A stretch of 32,000 bases of DNA. Source: Pirellula staleyi DSM 6068. GTDB taxonomy: Bacteria; Planctomycetota; Planctomycetia; Pirellulales; Pirellulaceae. The stretch covers positions 5,910,001-5,942,000 of the forward strand of contig CP001848.1 of NCBI GenBank assembly GCA_000025185.1. The letters are read 5' to 3'. The notes under the pieces were generated by a model, which saw only the letters and a list, made by a program, of their open reading frames with translations, ran no database searches and had not been told where the DNA came from. Positions 5,854 to 24,932 of this stretch are shown piece by piece. Every line of letters starts with the position of its first letter. The stretch's first letter is position 1. The position numbers and the translations under genes are program-made.

Positions 5854-7110
5854 TTACCGTGCAGCAAGCTCGGCCAATTTTTCGCTACCGTGACGCTCGA
5901 TCACTTCGCGAACATACTCTTGATCCGCAGGGCTAAGACGTTCGACAGGCACAGTCGTGGTGCGACCGGTTGTCTTGAGAATACGTACCTTGCCATCGAG
6001 GATCAGAATCAAACGGCCTTCGACTCGGAAGCCACCGGTGCTGTCGGTCCAGTTGCGAAGCGGAAGACCTTCAGCCGAGATCTTGAAGGGGTCGGCAAAG
6101 GGATCATCAGCAGCGGGGACTGGCGTGTTGGCTGGTGGTGGCTCTTCGGCTGGAACTTCGGCAGCTTCAGCGGCTGGTGCAGCAGGTTCTGCTGCTGGTG
6201 CGGGAGCGGCAGGTTCGCCAAACAGGTCGTCAACAGGATCAGCGGCTGGTGCTGGTGCGGGGGCAGGTGCCTCAGCAGCGGGCGCAGCGACAGGAGCAAA
6301 AGGATCGTCGGCAGCAGGTGCTGGAGCGGGAGCCTCGGCTGGCTCTTCAGCTGGCACAGGTGCAGGAGCGGGAGCTTCAGCAGCCGGAGCAAAGGGATCG
6401 TCTGCAGCGGGTGCTGGCATCGGGGCCGGTGCTGGGGCTTCCGCTGGTTCTTCAGCAGGAGCTGGTGCTTCAGGGGCTGGAGCTTCGGGAGCGGGAGCTT
6501 CGGGAGCGGGAGCCGGTGCTGGCTTGGGAGTGTCGAACAAGTCCCCCAGGTCGTCCGCCGGAGCTGGCATTGGTGCCGGAGCGGGTGCTTCTGGGGCAGG
6601 GACTTCTGGAGCGGGGACTTCTGGTGCAGGGGCTGGTTCAGGAGCAGGAGCTCCCGGAGCCGGAACTGGCGCTGGTTCTGGTGCCGGTGCAGGTGCAGGT
6701 GCTTCAGGCGCTAGCACGGGCGCTGGTGGTTCAGGGGCCGGCGTTTCCGGAGCTGGAACCGGTGCTGGTGGTTCAGGCATTGGAGCCGGAGCGGGAGCTT
6801 CTGGGGCTGGAACCTCAGGCTTTGTTGCCTCAGGGGCTGGCACCTCAGCAGCGGGCGTCATTGGAGCTGGCTCGGGCATCGGTGCAGGAGCTTCTGGCTC
6901 GGGCATCGGGGTCGGTTCCACAGGGGCATCGCCCGCTGCAGCTGCCGCACCAGTTTCCCCGGCAACTTCGCAGCATGGCGGTGGAGGGCAGCAGCGACGC
7001 GAACGTCGAGCAGCCAACCAACGACAGGCCATTGCCGTGTCGATCAGTGTGAGCGAAGCAATCAGACCAACCAACGCCACCTTGCACCATCGTGCGAGCG
7101 ACTTGCGCAT
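5854..7110 (-). CDS. membrane-anchored or secreted P/A-rich protein with a C-terminal SHD1 (SLA1 homology domain 1)
   Basis: ORF 5854..7167. The Met at 7110 gives MRKSLARWCKVALVGLIASLTLIDTAMA, a signal or anchor sequence. This is followed by the Cys cluster CRWLAARRSRRCCPPPPCCE and about 290 aa of (A/E/V)PAPE-type low complexity. The C-terminal RNWTDSTGGFRVEGRLILILDGKVRILKTTGRTTTVPVERLSPADQEYV matches the SHD1 pattern R.W.D..G.F...A......G.V.L....G....VP...LS..D..Y. Confidence 0.75.
   Translation of the reverse strand: MRKSLARWCKVALVGLIASLTLIDTAMACRWLAARRSRRCCPPPPCCEVAGETGAAAAAGDAPVEPTPMPEPEAPAPMPEPAPMTPAAEVPAPEATKPEVPAPEAPAPAPMPEPPAPVPAPETPAPEPPAPVLAPEAPAPAPAPEPAPVPAPGAPAPEPAPAPEVPAPEVPAPEAPAPAPMPAPADDLGDLFDTPKPAPAPAPEAPAPEAPAPEAPAPAEEPAEAPAPAPMPAPAADDPFAPAAEAPAPAPVPAEEPAEAPAPAPAADDPFAPVAAPAAEAPAPAPAPAADPVDDLFGEPAAPAPAAEPAAPAAEAAEVPAEEPPPANTPVPAADDPFADPFKISAEGLPLRNWTDSTGGFRVEGRLILILDGKVRILKTTGRTTTVPVERLSPADQEYVREVIERHGSEKLAELAAR
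6094..6954 (-). repeat. in-frame degenerate P/A/E tandem repeats (low-complexity coding region)
   Basis: Runs of APAPEAPAPEAPAPE. Larger duplicated units are also present: EVPAPEAPAPAPMPEP vs EVPAPEAPAPAPMPAP, and EEPAEAPAPAPMPAPAADDPFAP vs EEPAEAPAPAPAADDPFAP. The region generates long shadow ORFs in several frames. Confidence 0.85.
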
Positions 7111-7564
7111 CGAAGCAATCTCCAAGTTCAATGTGCGACTAGTTCTATCGTGCCAAACAATGTACATGCAGTATCGAGCTGAAAAACCCAGCCGACACGT
7201 TTATTTCAGGGGCTAGACAGCCATCGAGCGGGCTATCTGGCAGCTTCTATCCGGTCGATTTCGAGCCGTTTCGCTCCACAGGCTTATTCTGCCCAAGGTT
7301 TTCAAGCGACTCGCATAAGTTGGGCATTCAAAAGCCGTTTGTTACGGAAAACCCCAGCTGATCTGACGCCAACGCGACACTTCCCGACGGAAGCGTCCTG
7401 AAGCAACAGCGTAACATCACGAGTGAAATCGCTGCCGCCCGAGCGAAGTGCGTCAAACCTTGCGCAACTTATCTCGATTATGCTACCCCGCAGGAAAGAG
7501 CCTAGCAACCAAATCTGCTGGCACCGATTTTTGGGGTACGGTCAGAGACGACCAGATTTGCCAG

Positions 7565-19387: not shown

Positions 19388-20677
19388 ATGAGCCGCATGC
19401 TCCACCTCAACGGATTCTGGCCAACAGCTACCAAGTGGGTGATGCTTTCACTTGCTCTGTTCACCGCCACTCTGGTCGGCTGCAACGGCAAAGGAGATTC
19501 CGCCGCCACGTCGGGGGGCAATCCCAAGGTTATCAAAATCGTCTCGAGCTTCCCCCGCACCGGAAGCGCTAAAGCTCAAACCGACACCATCGTGAACGGT
19601 ATTAAGCTCGCCTTGCTCGAAGTCGACTACAAAATCGGCGAGTACACGATCGAGTACATCGATAAGGACGACGCGACTGCCTCGGCTGGACAGTGGACCA
19701 GTGAGGCCGAAACCGCCAACGCCGACTTTGCTCTCAAAGATCCCGATGTGATGGTCTACATCGGCACGTACAACTCGGGGGCCGCCAAGATCTCCATGCC
19801 GATGCTCAATCGCGGAAACATGCTCATGATTAGCCCGGCCAACACCTGGCCAGGACTCACCAAGCCAGGTCTCGGCGACCCAGGTGAACCCGAGATCTAT
19901 CGCCCCAGCGGAAAGCCCACCTATGTGCGTGTGGTTCCAGCCGACGACCTTCAAGGAACTTTGGCAGCCGACTGGGCCAAGTCGATGGGGATGAAAACGG
20001 TTTACATTCTCGACGACAAAGAAGTTTATGGGCGTGGCATCGCCACCCTGTTTCACGAACGGTGCGACGAAATCGGCATCCAGGTACTGGGGCACGACAG
20101 CATCGACGTGAAGAGCCAAGAGTTCAAATCCAAGATGTCGTCGATCAAAGCACTCGAGCCTGATCTTGTCTACTTCGGTGGCACCACTCAGTCACAAGCA
20201 GGCCAAATCGCTAAAGACTTGGTAGCTGCGGGACTCTCGGCCAAACTGATGGTCCCCGATGGTTGCATGGAAGCTGCCTTCATTCAGTCGGCTGGTGCCG
20301 AGAACCTGAACGACCGCTGCTACATCACATTCGGTGGACTTCCGCCGAAAGAGTTGACCGGCAAGGGGAAGGAGTTTGTCGACCGCTATATCGAGCAGTT
20401 CAAGACCGAGCCAGAAGCGTACGCTGTGTATGGCTATGAATCGGCGCGTGTAGCCATCGAAGCGATCAAACGGGCTGGCAAAAAAGATCGCGCCGCGATC
20501 GTCGACGCGGCCTTCGAACTCAAAGACATGGAGGGCTCGCTCGGGCTATGGTCGATCGACGAAAATGGCGACACCACGCTGGCGGTCCTCAGTGGCAACA
20601 CCGTGAAAGATGGCAAGTTCGAGTTTGTTCGCATACTCGATGAAACCCTTGCGAAGGCAGCCGAGAACGATCAATAG
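19388..20677 (+). CDS. branched-chain amino acid (LIV-type) ABC transporter substrate-binding lipoprotein
   Basis: The ATG at 19388 gives MSRMLHLNGFWPTATKWVMLSLALFTATLVGC, with a lipobox L-V-G-C. The body resembles the LivJ/LivK Peripla_BP_6 family (...YIGTYNSGAAKISMPMLN..., ...VYFGGTTQSQAGQIAKD...). It is followed by livHMGF-type genes. The upstream 100 codons of the track ORF (19088) are rejected. Confidence 0.85.
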   Translation: MSRMLHLNGFWPTATKWVMLSLALFTATLVGCNGKGDSAATSGGNPKVIKIVSSFPRTGSAKAQTDTIVNGIKLALLEVDYKIGEYTIEYIDKDDATASAGQWTSEAETANADFALKDPDVMVYIGTYNSGAAKISMPMLNRGNMLMISPANTWPGLTKPGLGDPGEPEIYRPSGKPTYVRVVPADDLQGTLAADWAKSMGMKTVYILDDKEVYGRGIATLFHERCDEIGIQVLGHDSIDVKSQEFKSKMSSIKALEPDLVYFGGTTQSQAGQIAKDLVAAGLSAKLMVPDGCMEAAFIQSAGAENLNDRCYITFGGLPPKELTGKGKEFVDRYIEQFKTEPEAYAVYGYESARVAIEAIKRAGKKDRAAIVDAAFELKDMEGSLGLWSIDENGDTTLAVLSGNTVKDGKFEFVRILDETLAKAAENDQ

Positions 20678-20774: not shown

Positions 20775-21755
20775 ATGATGCATTCTCTGCTTGCCGATGC
20801 CACCACGAGTGCTCCTTTTGGCACGTTCTTGCAGCAAGTGCTGATCGGCCTCACCAATGGCTCGCTGATCGCGCTGATTGCACTCGGCTATACGATGGTC
20901 TACGGCATCATCGGGCTGATTAATTTTGCGCACGGCGATCTGTTCATGCTCGGCTCGTTCTTCGCCCTCACTGTGATCAGCTTGATCCTGGGAGTTGCGG
21001 GGGGCGAATCATCGTCGGCAGCGTTTATTTTTCTAGCGATTTTTGTATCGCTGGTCCTGGTGCCGCTGTTCTGCGCTTCGCTGAATGTCACAGTCGACTA
21101 CATCATCTATAAGCCGCTACGCAACGCCCCCAAGCTTGCGCCGCTAGTTTCGGCTATTGGCGTTTCGTTCATCTTCATGAACGCAGGACTGCTGTGGCGC
21201 GGTGCTTCCCCCGTCCACTTCCCCAACATTCTTCCGGGCGGCAACTACAACCTGTTCGAATTGATCAACTACGAATCGATTCGCTTCACTGTGAAGGATC
21301 TCACCGTCATCCTCATCACCGTTCCTGTAATGGTGGGACTCACCCTATTTGTGAAGTACACCAAACTGGGAACGGCCATGCGTGCGACCGAGCAAAGCCA
21401 ACTCGCAGCACGCCTGATGGGCATCAACGTCGATCGCGTCATCGCCGTCACCTTCGGCATCGGTGGTGCACTAGCTGGCGTTGCGAGCGTGATCTACGGA
21501 CTCACAATCAACACCGTTAGTTTTCAAATGGGGTTTCAGAACGGCATCTACGCCTTCACGGCAGCTGTGCTCGGTGGCATTGGGAGCCTCCCGGGCGCGA
21601 TGCTCGGTGGCTTGATCATCGGCCTCGTCCGCTCGCTCGGAAGCGAATACATCGGCGAGAACTGGACCAATGCCCTCATCTTTTCGATTCTGATTGCGAT
21701 CCTGGTGTTTCGCCCTTCGGGACTCCTTGGAAAAACAGGACGCGAAAAAGTATGA
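20775..21755 (+). CDS. livH: branched-chain amino acid ABC transporter permease LivH
   Basis: FLQQVLIGLTNGSLIALIALGYTMVYGIIGLINFAHGDLFMLG is the LivH N-terminal signature. The protein has multiple TM segments. Its stop overlaps the livM start (ATGA at 21752-21755). Confidence 0.9.
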   Translation: MMHSLLADATTSAPFGTFLQQVLIGLTNGSLIALIALGYTMVYGIIGLINFAHGDLFMLGSFFALTVISLILGVAGGESSSAAFIFLAIFVSLVLVPLFCASLNVTVDYIIYKPLRNAPKLAPLVSAIGVSFIFMNAGLLWRGASPVHFPNILPGGNYNLFELINYESIRFTVKDLTVILITVPVMVGLTLFVKYTKLGTAMRATEQSQLAARLMGINVDRVIAVTFGIGGALAGVASVIYGLTINTVSFQMGFQNGIYAFTAAVLGGIGSLPGAMLGGLIIGLVRSLGSEYIGENWTNALIFSILIAILVFRPSGLLGKTGREKV

Positions 21756-22897
21756 GCAGCACCAAGCCCCGTCCTCATCAACATTCCGCTGCGAAAGTGT
21801 CGCAAAAATCCCTAGCGAAATACTCGCCGGTTTCCCTCAGCACCCTGGCTGAATGGGGCGTCATCGTCGCGCTAATTCTCTATCCCTTCTTGCCGATTCC
21901 CGCCACTTACGGCACGCAGCTTTCGAACCTCTTTATCTTCGCGATCTTGGCACTCGGTTTGAATGTGGTTGTCGGGTACACCGGTCTGCTGAACCTCGGC
22001 ATCGCAGCCTTCTTCGGAATTGGTGCCTACATCACCGGCATCCTGATGGCCTCCCCCACCTATCCGTTTGGCTGGAACTTTGTGCCGACTCTCGTTGTGG
22101 CAACACTCGGCGCAGGAGCAGCGGGATTAATGCTCGGCGCACCGACGCTGCGACTCCGTGGCGACTATCTCGCGCTGGTCACCCTCGGGTTTGGTGAAGT
22201 GCTTCGAACGTCGCTCGAGAACCTCGAGGAAATCACCGGCGGCACCCGAACTCTCGGCCCAATTCCGCCCCCTGCTCCCGAAACACTCATTGGACTAGAG
22301 TTCGACTGGAGCCAAGATTTTCGGCCGTTTTACTACTTAAACCTGATCGTGCTCGCGATTGTGGTGAAGCTGCTGTTTAACCTCGAACGCTCGAAGCTCG
22401 GACGTGCATGGGTGGCGATTCGCGAAGATGAACTGGCCGCCACTTGCATGGGGATTAGCGCCGCACGTGTCAAAATGTCAGCCTTTGCGGCAGGTGCTGC
22501 GATCGCAGGGCTCGCCGGCTCGCTCTACGCCATCAATCTTGGCAACACGTCAGCCCCAGCTGCGTTTGACTTCAATCGCAGCATCATGATGCTTTGCTGC
22601 GTGATCCTCGGAGGGCTCGGAAGCATTCGTGGCACGCTGCTAGGCGTACTACTCCTCATTGGCTTCGACAACGTACTTTCACCGATTCTCGATGGCCTGA
22701 TTCAGCAGTCGGGACTCAACCCCGACGGCAGCCGTTTTTTGACGTTCAGCAGTTGGCGACTTTTGATTTTCGGCCTCGCTCTGATTCTGATGATGCGACT
22801 CCGTCCAGAAGGACTGATTCCTGCCAGCCGCGTGCAACTCGAACTGCATCCCGAGCACGAAAACGGAGCCACCATCGCCACGAAAGGAGCGACCTAA
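21752..22897 (+). CDS. livM: branched-chain amino acid ABC transporter permease LivM
   Basis: LALGLNVVVGYTGLLNLGIAAFFGIGAYI and LRGDYLALVTLGFGEVLR are typical of LivM. Its stop overlaps the next start (TAATG at 22895-22899). Confidence 0.9.
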   Translation: MSSTKPRPHQHSAAKVSQKSLAKYSPVSLSTLAEWGVIVALILYPFLPIPATYGTQLSNLFIFAILALGLNVVVGYTGLLNLGIAAFFGIGAYITGILMASPTYPFGWNFVPTLVVATLGAGAAGLMLGAPTLRLRGDYLALVTLGFGEVLRTSLENLEEITGGTRTLGPIPPPAPETLIGLEFDWSQDFRPFYYLNLIVLAIVVKLLFNLERSKLGRAWVAIREDELAATCMGISAARVKMSAFAAGAAIAGLAGSLYAINLGNTSAPAAFDFNRSIMMLCCVILGGLGSIRGTLLGVLLLIGFDNVLSPILDGLIQQSGLNPDGSRFLTFSSWRLLIFGLALILMMRLRPEGLIPASRVQLELHPEHENGATIATKGAT

Positions 22898-24219
22898 TGC
22901 CGCTTCTATCGGTCAAAGACTTGACGATGCGATTTGGTGGTCTCACCGCCGTGAAGGATGTCGATATCGATGTCGAAGCGGGGCAAATCGTATCGGTGAT
23001 TGGCCCCAATGGTGCCGGGAAAACAACCGTCTTCAATGCGATCACGGGGATCTACGAACCAACCTCGGGGACGATCGAATTCGCAGGCAGAGAACTGGTG
23101 CGTCCGTTAAATTTGCGCGTGATTGCCAGCTGCGCTGCTATCGGAATACTGACCGGCACAATGCTGATGCTCGCCGCTAGCAATATCGACCAGTTGTGGA
23201 AAGCCGCCGTGAAGCGGCCCATGGTGATCGCCTACGACACCAAGGAGCCACTCACCACAGGACAGATGCTGCGTGGTGCACGCGAATATCTGGCTGGAGA
23301 TCTGGCACTCAATCGACTCCGCAGTGGCCGCTGGACCATCATTTCTGCCGACGGCTCGATCACACTCGGGACCGAGAAAAACTATGAGCTGGCGCTCGCG
23401 CGGCGCGATCTTGTCCGTCGAGCGATCGACGATCTCGACAGCCTCCAGGTGGTACAGGCCGACAAGCTCGAACTGCAACTGGCGACCGGAGAGACGATCT
23501 ACTCGGCTGAGAACGAAGCACAAATCGACTTTTTTCGAAAACAGCTAAGCGATATTGCTGCACGTGCTACTGCCGCCAGTTTTTGGCAGATCGGTGCCAT
23601 GTTTCTCGGAACGATTCTCGGCGCTGCGGGGACCTACGTCGTTTGGAATCGCTCGCGCCGAGTACCAGAAGTGATCTCGCACGGTGGCATTGCTCGCACG
23701 TTTCAAAACATTCGACTTTTTCCGCACATGACGGTGCTCGAGAACGTGCTGATTGGCATGGATCGCAAGTTCAGCAGCAATGTGCTGGCGATGATGCTGC
23801 AGCTCCCCTTTACCCGTCAAGCGCAAAAGAATCTATGCGGCCAGGCGACCGAACTGCTGAAGCTGCTCGATATCGACTCGCATCGCGACGATTTGGCCAA
23901 AAATCTGCCCTATGGCAAGCAGCGTCGCCTGGAAATTGCCCGCGCTCTAGCGACCGAACCGAAACTCCTTTTGCTCGACGAACCAGCGGCTGGCATGAAC
24001 CCATCGGAGTCGGACGACTTGATGCAGATGATCCGCAAAATTCGTGATCGAGGGGTCACGATCGTGCTGATCGAGCACCACATGAAACTGGTGATGGATA
24101 TTTCCGATCGAATTCATGTCCTCGAGTACGGACAAAAAATCGCCGAAGGAACACCGAAAGAAGTACGCGAAAATCCTCGCGTCATCGAAGCCTATCTCGG
24201 CAAGGACGAGGTGAGCTGA
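22897..24219 (+). CDS. livG: LivG-type ABC ATPase carrying a ~190-aa internal insertion with two predicted TM helices
   Basis: The protein begins MPLLSVKDLTMRFGGLTAVKDVDIDVEAGQIVSVIGPNGAGKTT (Walker A). The insertion spans aa ~68-258. After it come GIARTFQNIRLF (Q-loop), LPYGKQRRLEIARAL (signature), LLLLDEPAAGMN (Walker B) and LIEHHMKLV. The C-terminus is LivG-like (PKEVRENPRVIEAYLG). Total length is 440 aa. The track ORF start (22594) overlaps livM and is rejected. Confidence 0.85.
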   Translation: MPLLSVKDLTMRFGGLTAVKDVDIDVEAGQIVSVIGPNGAGKTTVFNAITGIYEPTSGTIEFAGRELVRPLNLRVIASCAAIGILTGTMLMLAASNIDQLWKAAVKRPMVIAYDTKEPLTTGQMLRGAREYLAGDLALNRLRSGRWTIISADGSITLGTEKNYELALARRDLVRRAIDDLDSLQVVQADKLELQLATGETIYSAENEAQIDFFRKQLSDIAARATAASFWQIGAMFLGTILGAAGTYVVWNRSRRVPEVISHGGIARTFQNIRLFPHMTVLENVLIGMDRKFSSNVLAMMLQLPFTRQAQKNLCGQATELLKLLDIDSHRDDLAKNLPYGKQRRLEIARALATEPKLLLLDEPAAGMNPSESDDLMQMIRKIRDRGVTIVLIEHHMKLVMDISDRIHVLEYGQKIAEGTPKEVRENPRVIEAYLGKDEVS

Positions 24220-24932
24220 TGCCGCGACTTTTGGAAGTAAAAGGCCTTACCGCTGGCTACGGCATGATCGAAGTGCTGCACGATATGAGTGTGCACATCG
24301 ATGAAGGGGAAATCGTGACGATCATCGGCGCCAATGGTGCCGGCAAGACGACCACGCTGCATTGCCTGTCGGGACTTGTTCCCGCACGGCAAGGCAAAAT
24401 CCTCTTACGTGGCCAAGAGATTCAAAATCTGCCGCCGCATGAAATCGTGCTGCTGGGACTGAGTCAATCGCCCGAAGGTCGACGCATTTTCCCGCGACTC
24501 TCGGTACTCGAGAACTTGCAGATGGGAGCTTTCACACGCAGCGATAAGCCCCAAATCGCCAAGGATATCGAGCATTGCTACGATCTGTTTCCGATCCTGA
24601 AAGAACGTCAGCAGCAACTGGGCGGAACTCTTTCCGGTGGTGAGCAGCAGATGCTGGCCGTCGCACGAGCGATCCTCAGTCGCCCCAAACTGCTGCTGCT
24701 CGACGAACCTTCCCTCGGTCTGGCGCCGCTGATTGTCCTGAAGATCTTCGAAGTGATTCGCAAGCTCAACCAAGAGGGAATGTCGGTGATTCTCGTCGAG
24801 CAAAACGCCCGCATGGCGCTCAAGCTGGCCCATCGAGGCTATGTGCTCGAAACCGGCCGCATCACCGCCACCGGCAGTGGCCAATCGCTGCTCGACGACC
24901 CCAAAGTGCAAGAAGCCTATCTGGGGCATTAG
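24219..24932 (+). CDS. livF: branched-chain amino acid ABC transporter ATP-binding protein LivF
   Basis: 237 aa. Walker A GANGAGKTT, signature LSGGEQQMLAVARA, Walker B LLLLDEPSLGLAP, and C-terminal DPKVQEAYLG. The start overlaps the livG stop (TGATG). Confidence 0.9.
   Translation: MPRLLEVKGLTAGYGMIEVLHDMSVHIDEGEIVTIIGANGAGKTTTLHCLSGLVPARQGKILLRGQEIQNLPPHEIVLLGLSQSPEGRRIFPRLSVLENLQMGAFTRSDKPQIAKDIEHCYDLFPILKERQQQLGGTLSGGEQQMLAVARAILSRPKLLLLDEPSLGLAPLIVLKIFEVIRKLNQEGMSVILVEQNARMALKLAHRGYVLETGRITATGSGQSLLDDPKVQEAYLGH

Follow-up and report, generated by a model that had tools for sequence, protein, structure and literature searches.

Can the motor subunit of an ABC importer itself run through the membrane? 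In general, the nucleotide-binding domains (NBDs) of ABC transporters are regarded as soluble cytoplasmic engines that sense the outside of the cell via the membrane subunits alone. The question is raised by a livG-type gene in a stretch of 32 000 nucleotides from Pirellula staleyi DSM 6068 (GenBank assembly GCA_000025185.1, contig CP001848.1, positions 5,910,001 to 5,942,000 of the forward strand), which was analysed over its full length and is called the window below. An earlier reading of these letters had singled out the gene as coding for a LivG-type ATPase that is interrupted by a long insertion between two predicted transmembrane helices. What that reading stated of the sequence itself could all be reproduced, and its interpretation is supported in part. 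The protein indeed counts 440 amino acids compared with the 255 positions of the NCBIfam model of LivG. We find that it is a true LivG, the larger of the two ATPase subunits in an ABC importer of the LIV-I/HAAT type, in a form specific to its lineage in which the NBD is split by a folded insertion bearing two membrane-type helices.

The set of ABC NBD motifs is complete, with a Pfam ABC_tran match at E 1.9e-30. It comprises the Walker A motif GPNGAGKTT (residues 36–44), the Q-loop glutamine Gln270, the signature YGKQRRLEIAR (339–349), the Walker B motif LLLLDEP (357–363) and the H-loop IEHH (392–395), and the enlarged gap between Walker A and Q-loop that had been noted is thus confirmed. As had been expected, ABC_tran aligns as two pieces flanking the insert, and the NCBIfam LivG model does likewise. 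In the alignment with MJ1267, a LivG homologue of solved structure (PDB entry 1g6h), residues 6–72 pair with residues 2–68 of the window protein and residues 74–256 with residues 255–435. This leaves a clean insertion of 187 residues (69–255) between MJ1267 residues 72 and 74, in line with the range of 23098–23670 given originally, which corresponds to residues 68–258. The inserted module interrupts a loop on the surface of the β-subdomain, immediately ahead of the strand leading to the Q-loop.

The assignment to LivG is supported by both ends of the protein and by its partners. The Pfam domain BCA_ABC_TP_C (PF12399) is matched by residues 413–438 with an E value of 5e-14, over the family cut-off. 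NCBIfam ranks LivG as the best family, more than 100 bits ahead of UrtD; the score for the LivG equivalog NF008449 is 295.4 bits in two stretches and falls under the cut-off of 362 bits because the insert splits the match. The operon encodes two BPD_transp_2 permeases, LivF and a Peripla_BP_6 binding protein, as is expected for a HAAT LivG. Transport of branched-chain or hydrophobic amino acids is a putative function, assigned by family. The N-terminal NBD segment shares a mean identity of 71% with its homologues, and superposition of the NBD on LptB and MJ1267 with Foldseek gives target-normalised TM-scores between 0.83 and 0.89. The two segments are therefore predicted to come together in a normally assembled catalytic domain.

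An unusual length is also what one would see if an assembly error or a frameshift had joined separate sequences, or if an intein-like or other mobile element had settled in the gene. Nothing beyond the length speaks for such an origin, and we regard its probability as negligible. The same in-frame architecture is present in more than 100 independent assemblies, including the complete genomes of Pirellula staleyi, Tuwongella immobilis and Limnoglobus roseus. GC content is flat over livG, with no discontinuity, the flanks join into a complete NBD, and Pfam and NCBIfam give no intein or transposase matches. Frameshift, fusion and intein origins are thereby effectively refuted, and the assembly or frameshift artefact against which the original prediction had cautioned is excluded by the many assemblies of the same architecture together with the overlapping genes of the operon. 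The window LivG is 100% identical to the database entry P0001 and falls in a 90% identity cluster with ADB19192.1 of P. staleyi DSM 6068 (UniProt entry D2R6Y9).

A model of the protein was built with AlphaFold2 from an alignment of 90 homologous sequences. The whole protein is predicted with a local distance difference test score (pLDDT) of 94.8 and a template-modelling score (pTM) of 0.82; the pLDDT of the insert is about 95–97, and a separate model of its soluble part (residues 95–228) reaches 96.1. In the model the NBD strands end at residue 65 and are followed by the loop 66–72. The first hydrophobic helix, TM1, contains the near-invariant Gly83 as part of a GxxxG motif. It is followed by two juxtamembrane helices bearing the conserved motifs NVDxLWxAAxKR and PF(S/T)Y...Y, and by a pair of small units with the fold β-β-β-α (residues 137–178 and 184–225). 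The hydrophilic domain announced between the two helices is thus confidently folded, and the internal duplication that had been read in it is real: hhalign matches the family profiles of repeat 1 and repeat 2 with a probability of 97% and an E value of 3.5e-11. The family consensus of repeat 1 is rW.VvsaDG...L....t.eeA...R..l., while repeat 2 is the most variable part of the insert, with a mean identity of 12% to its homologues. The helix of repeat 2 continues into the second hydrophobic helix, TM2, as a single unbroken helix of 46 residues (207–252). TM2 carries a GxxxGxxG motif (Gly238, Gly242 and Gly245) and the invariant Trp250. Five residues beyond this long helix the native helix 257–262 begins, then strand 265–268 and Gln270, such that the end of TM2 lies 20 residues ahead of the Q-loop glutamine.

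The insert lies outside the canonical LivG/HAAT architecture, as had been claimed: taken alone it has no match among the Pfam or NCBIfam families, and it is absent from the solved structures of LivG and LptB. For the soluble domain, Pfam profiles give DUF2188 and SPOR at E values of about 0.02, each in two of 23 members, which is not significant, and no match to DUF1508. Profile searches of the PDB return chance-level matches only (14-3-3 and Ku80, E > 0.2). The best structural match of the module in the PDB is entry 2k49 (SO3888), with a Foldseek probability of 0.99 but an E value of 0.036 and TM-scores of 0.37–0.41. In a library of viral structures the matches are limited to single repeats, which fit small phage proteins of 40–60 residues with deviations of 1.3–2.4 Å over 40–50 residues. 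Judged from the model, the soluble module is an uncatalogued tandem of small β3-α units that appears weakly YegP-like.

The two hydrophobic stretches pointed out in the original prediction (residues 75–95 and 227–250) are real, and their position is conserved in the family. Both contain a 19-mer with a favourable Wimley–White octanol free energy in all 90 homologues, with means of -6.3 kcal/mol for TM1 and -5.7 kcal/mol for TM2; the best 19-mer elsewhere in the NBD has a mean of +0.2 kcal/mol. TM1 has 0.04 Lys and Arg and no acidic residues per sequence. In the window protein we find two straight, essentially uncharged helices of 21–24 residues, as expected of a pair of transmembrane helices. 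Small-xxx-small motifs are found on both and indicate that TM1 and TM2 are likely to pack tightly together. As far as sequence can tell, these properties are those of packed transmembrane helices and are untenable for solvent-exposed surfaces.

Since both ends of the insert join the cytoplasmic ATPase, two spanning helices force an in-out-in path that places residues 96–226 outside. A periplasmic module in this topology is probably the only simple reading, and several points weigh against it. The positive-inside rule does not discriminate, because Lys and Arg are equally frequent on both sides of the helices: the family means for the inside and outside are 3.2 versus 2.8 at TM1 and 3.4 versus 3.2 at TM2. 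The window protein behaves likewise, with KAAVKR after TM1 and RKQ..AAR before TM2. The basic residues that had been taken to fit an in-out-in hairpin are indeed present at the NBD-proximal ends, but being just as frequent at the distal ends they lend it no support by charge. For translocated loops that are long, the rule is known to be a weak guide. A sequence search finds no HAAT permease structure in the PDB, so that a bilayer-facing insertion site is an assumption. The soluble module is nearly devoid of cysteines (none in 85 of the 90 sequences), and no recognisable periplasmic signature was found in it. In the supplements of a subcellular proteome of Tuwongella immobilis, the homologue was not found under the accessions and the annotation phrase that were searched.

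The symmetric charge, which gives no sign of crossing, would also suit an insert that stays in the cytoplasm altogether, as a monotopic or peripheral anchor or packed on the NBD or on the cytoplasmic face of LivH/LivM. The scarcity of cysteines would fit such a location too, and so would the closest fold of the repeats, that of the UPF0339/YegP family, the members of which are known as cytoplasmic proteins. We nevertheless consider this arrangement improbable. The helices are nearly uncharged and partition favourably in every homologue, being too hydrophobic for solvent and long enough for a bilayer; TM2 is bounded on either side by Trp residues at a spacing of about 20 residues, and both helices carry motifs of the GxxxG type, as is usual for intramembrane packing. 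The pairs of EF-hands that some variants carry would also suit the Ca2+-rich space outside the cytoplasm.

The architecture is shared by a whole family. The 120 best relatives listed in a full-length search, proteins of 405–596 residues, all contain the insert, and 106 of these align over 99–100% of the query. A hydrophobic segment is found at the position of TM1 in all listed relatives and at that of TM2 in most. Their named sources are Pirellulales, Pirellulaceae, Gemmataceae, Isosphaeraceae and Tuwongella. When 1.84 billion cluster representatives are searched exhaustively by HMMER with a profile of the insert alone, no more than 138 proteins match at E ≤ 1e-3, 94 of them at E ≤ 1e-10, and in nearly all cases the match starts near residue 67 in a LivG context. 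A word-indexed protein search with the insert alone (198 residues) gave no match; it also missed the identical entry P0001 and is thus uninformative as to whether the insert is an orphan. The taxonomic label of one insert-bearing relative, P0263 (MCL4234020.1), is Deltaproteobacteria.

A scan of 185,579 species genomes for the junction motif RSRRTPDVI, which samples the part of the family sharing this motif, yields 25 confirmed loci. All but one (24) are labelled Planctomycetota, including Limnoglobus roseus, Fimbriiglobus, Urbifossiella, Schlesneria and Pirellulales. The complete order SBP-livH-livM-livG(insert)-livF, where SBP denotes the substrate-binding protein, is seen in 14 of them; parts of this order are seen in the remaining ones, for the most part contigs that are short or cut. 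The insert is always in frame, and in most loci its identity is 25–33% versus 62–76% for the NBD flanks. The insert-bearing liv gene of L010 (CAYVRB010000266.1) comes from a metagenome-assembled genome labelled Alcaligenaceae, and P0263 likewise belongs to such a genome; all other sources with a name are Planctomycetota. This label and the deltaproteobacterial one could be due to mis-binning or to horizontal transfer, the taxonomy being unverified.

The idea that a homologous insert is widespread outside LivG was rejected, as the β3-α unit occurs elsewhere in just two large proteins, P0252 (1157 residues) and P0257 (912 residues), which look phage-like in sequence and are the only matches to the insert profile that are not LivG. 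Both contain several copies of a unit of the form W.V...DG...L..F.T..EA, and P0252 has a DUF6582 domain as well.

Conservation is distributed unevenly over the insert. The majority frequency is 0.76 for the junction W.RSRRTPDVI at its cytoplasmic end, on a par with the NBD (0.75–0.78), and falls to 0.58 for the juxtamembrane helices, 0.53 for the TM helices, 0.47 for repeat 1 and 0.32 for repeat 2. The junction is hence the best conserved part of the insert. Positions conserved in at least 90% of the 90 aligned sequences are Gly83, Leu100, Trp101, Ala103, Arg107, Phe119, Tyr131, Ala166, Gly238, Gly242, Gly245, Arg252, Arg254 and Arg255.

Natural variants indicate which parts can be dispensed with. 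A short insert of about 95 residues, consisting of TM1, the two juxtamembrane helices and TM2 and lacking the repeats, is found in P0029 and P0032 from Isosphaeraceae and in loci from Gemmataceae, Urbifossiella and Fimbriiglobus. The two Isosphaeraceae proteins are LivG–LivF fusions of 595–596 residues. The number of repeats ranges from 0 to about five: most relatives have two, some have one (P0035), and P0142 (579 residues) has about five tandem β3-α copies between both hydrophobic helices. Proteins of the Schlesneria type (498–529 residues; P0026, P0022, P0038, P0043 and others, and the Schlesneria loci L014, L015, L017, L020 and L022) have a pair of EF-hand loops of the canonical kind, DANADGQVSLSE and DDNGDGQLSRTE, in the stretch from TM1 to the repeats; a Pfam scan finds no EF-hand loops in the window protein. 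In several lineages a second, independent pair of hydrophobic helices, spanning about 50 residues, is inserted into the helical subdomain past the Q-loop, as in P0092, P0102, P0145 and P0167 and in two of the loci, at the position of residues 291–296 (approximately) of the window protein. The NBDs of these variants would have two membrane hairpins. Lastly, P0191 (459 residues, in a cluster of four members from several contigs) has a degenerate Walker A sequence, GLATTDPEV, and no Q-loop glutamine, and retains the hydrophobic hairpin, an NVDxLW-like collar and one repeat. Judged by sequence, P0191 may be a pseudo-ATPase whose insert has persisted beyond the loss of catalysis.

The invariant core consists of the hairpin, the presumably periplasmic collar and the cytoplasmic junction, and the β3-α repeats are an evolvable accessory. 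As the short variants keep the hairpin without the hydrophilic domain, the conserved core function probably resides in the former rather than in the latter. The original prediction had put its emphasis on the hydrophilic domain; that domain exists, but it is the hairpin in which the short variants place the conserved core.

On balance we lean towards a structural lock, in which the hairpin makes the LivG side of an asymmetric motor integral to the membrane assembly. LivG would then be an integral membrane subunit, the N-terminal 68 and C-terminal 185 residues of which fold jointly into a normal cytoplasmic ATPase. LivF lacks the insertion, and one hairpin per transporter would therefore lie in the bilayer, most likely against LivH/LivM. 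Beyond the membrane, the two conserved juxtamembrane helices and the tandem pair of small β3-α units would form a module of about 130 residues exposed in the periplasm, near the docking site of the lipoprotein SBP. Of the insert, just the hairpin and juxtamembrane helices are common to all variants, which favours a structural role: they would fasten LivG, as one side of the LivG–LivF motor, to the membrane domains. The periplasmic repeats would be a variable accessory that may contact the SBP or periplasmic loops. A purely structural role leaves unexplained why the repeats are retained in most lineages and why repeat 2 runs on into TM2 as one rigid helix.

This continuity is what a trans-membrane regulator would exploit. 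The periplasmic module would sense something beyond the membrane, such as docking of the loaded SBP, or Ca2+ in the EF-hand variants, and signal via TM2 to the Q-loop region, which we consider rather unlikely. ATP hydrolysis by LivG would in that event be gated directly, and not just by way of the coupling helices of LivH/LivM, with the junction W.RSRRTPDVI and the helix formed by repeat 2 and TM2 serving as a mechanical wire, a doubtful but specific possibility. Such a wire would suit the single 46-residue helix of the AlphaFold2 model, which ends five residues before the native helix and strand carrying Gln270, and the junction being the best conserved part of the insert. The EF-hand loops of the Schlesneria relatives between the helices point the same way, and an insert on one ATPase of two suits an asymmetric control point. 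Against it, the short variants dispense with the periplasmic domain and keep the hairpin, so that sensing is not the ancestral or universal function, and the repeats are the least conserved part and lack a match to any known ligand-binding family. The coupling of the motor to periplasmic events that was raised in the original prediction is speculative, if consistent with the rigid helix seen in the model. The structural lock is the reading that we retain.

The coordinates of the gene, its parts and its neighbours are collected in Table 1. livG stands fourth in a compact operon with the order SBP-livH-livM-livG-livF. The stop codon of livH and the start codon of livM overlap in ATGA, the TAA of livM and the ATG of livG in TAATG, and the stop of livG and the start of livF in TGATG. 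An AAGGAG Shine–Dalgarno sequence lies 8 nucleotides upstream of livG. The SBP has a signal sequence and a lipobox LVGC, its start codon and lipobox being read from the sequence. Elsewhere in the window, an open reading frame of 437 residues (5854–7167, reverse strand) has a hydrophobic N-terminal segment, about 300 residues of Pro/Ala-rich low-complexity repeats of the APAPE type and then a short globular C-terminus; a spike in GC content (0.668) and the strong GC skew at 6001–7000 are due to it.

Table 1. Location of livG, the segments of its product and the neighbouring genes in the window, and of variant forms in related loci (residue numbers refer to the window LivG).
Feature	Location	Strand	Residues	Remarks
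livG-type ABC ATPase gene with insertion	22897..24219	+		440 residues plus stop; one continuous open reading frame
N-terminal NBD segment	22897..23100	+	1-68	Strands 1-2, Walker A, helix, β-hairpin; ABC_tran profile positions 1-51
Basic cytoplasmic linker RPLNLR (start of insertion)	23101..23118	+	69-74	Read from sequence; family consensus RPxTWxV
Hydrophobic helix TM1, VIASCAAIGILTGTMLMLAAS	23119..23181	+	75-95	Kyte-Doolittle 19-mer peak 2.08; AlphaFold2 helix 73-94, pLDDT ~97
Two juxtamembrane helices	23182..23295	+	96-133	AlphaFold2 helices 97-115, 121-132
β3-α repeat 1	23296..23439	+	134-181	AlphaFold2 strands 137-140, 146-149, 156-160; helix 163-178
β3-α repeat 2	23440..23574	+	182-226	AlphaFold2 strands 184-187, 191-194, 200-204; helix 207-252
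Hydrophobic helix TM2, ASFWQIGAMFLGTILGAAGTYVVW	23575..23646	+	227-250	Kyte-Doolittle 19-mer peak 1.57
Basic junction NRSRR (end of insertion)	23647..23661	+	251-255	Family motif W.RSRRTPDVI
C-terminal NBD segment	23662..24216	+	256-440	Q-loop, signature, Walker B, H-loop, BCA_ABC_TP_C tail
Substrate-binding protein	19388..20677	+		Pfam Peripla_BP_6, E 4e-34; lipoprotein
livH-type permease	20775..21755	+		326 residues; Pfam BPD_transp_2, E 7e-44
livM-type permease	21752..22897	+		381 residues; Pfam BPD_transp_2, E 8e-46
livF-type ABC ATPase	24219..24932	+		237 residues, canonical, without insertion; Pfam ABC_tran in one piece, residues 20-165 of LivF
Short-insert form	L024:4803-5840
Short-insert form	L025:1929-2966
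Short-insert form	L023:2177-2776
Second-hairpin form	L005:4806-6212
Second-hairpin form	L007:4803-6206

A bacterial class (Pirellulales, Gemmatales, Isosphaerales and Planctomycetales relatives) thus appears to have an ABC engine that is split by an excursion into the membrane. If this is true, the catalytic domain folds from two pieces, one made ahead of co-translational membrane insertion and the other following it, and one of the two ATPases owns a periplasmic domain. If confirmed, this would be a new architecture for the ABC catalogue; should the insert act as a regulator, ABC importers would have a mode of trans-membrane control that was not known before. The insert-bearing LivG offers a natural system for studying how LivG and LivF are asymmetrically coupled to docking of the SBP, and the range of natural variants of the insert brings the question within reach of experiment. 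The proteins are currently labelled just 'ABC transporter ATP-binding protein', and the motif W.RSRRTPDVI after a hydrophobic helix can serve as a sequence marker for their annotation. A full-text literature search found no description of the LivG insert. The helices are probably flagged already by automatic transmembrane annotation in public databases, and what is new is therefore the recognition and interpretation of the architecture rather than the sequence as such.

Compared with canonical LivG and MJ1267, the window protein has the same NBD fold and motifs, including the signature YGxQRRLEIAR, the same BCA_ABC_TP_C tail and the same partners SBP, LivH, LivM and LivF; it differs by the 187-residue insertion with its two membrane-type helices and folded module. 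That module resembles UPF0339/YegP (DUF1508; PDB entry 2k49) in being a tandem of two small β-β-β-α units. The match is weak, the function of that family is unknown, and no signal connects the two at the level of sequence in the Pfam or PDB profile searches. Additions that modulate the motor are known from other NBDs, such as the C-terminal domains of MalK, MetN and OpuA and the regulatory insertion in NBD1 of CFTR. These are all cytoplasmic and, to our knowledge, none spans the membrane, such that the window LivG shares with them just the idea of an accessory on the NBD. The nearest architectural precedent that could be documented is TagGH, the teichoic-acid exporter of Bacillus subtilis, where a TM helix followed by an extracellular domain is fused to the C-terminus of the ATPase, an arrangement that was called unusual (PMC11466899). 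In both cases the ATPase polypeptide itself has a transmembrane helix leading to an extracytoplasmic domain, a topology that is predicted for LivG. The two proteins are unrelated by sequence, and whereas TagGH is a type V exporter with a single TM helix and domain following the NBD, the window LivG belongs to an importer and carries a two-helix hairpin inside the NBD.

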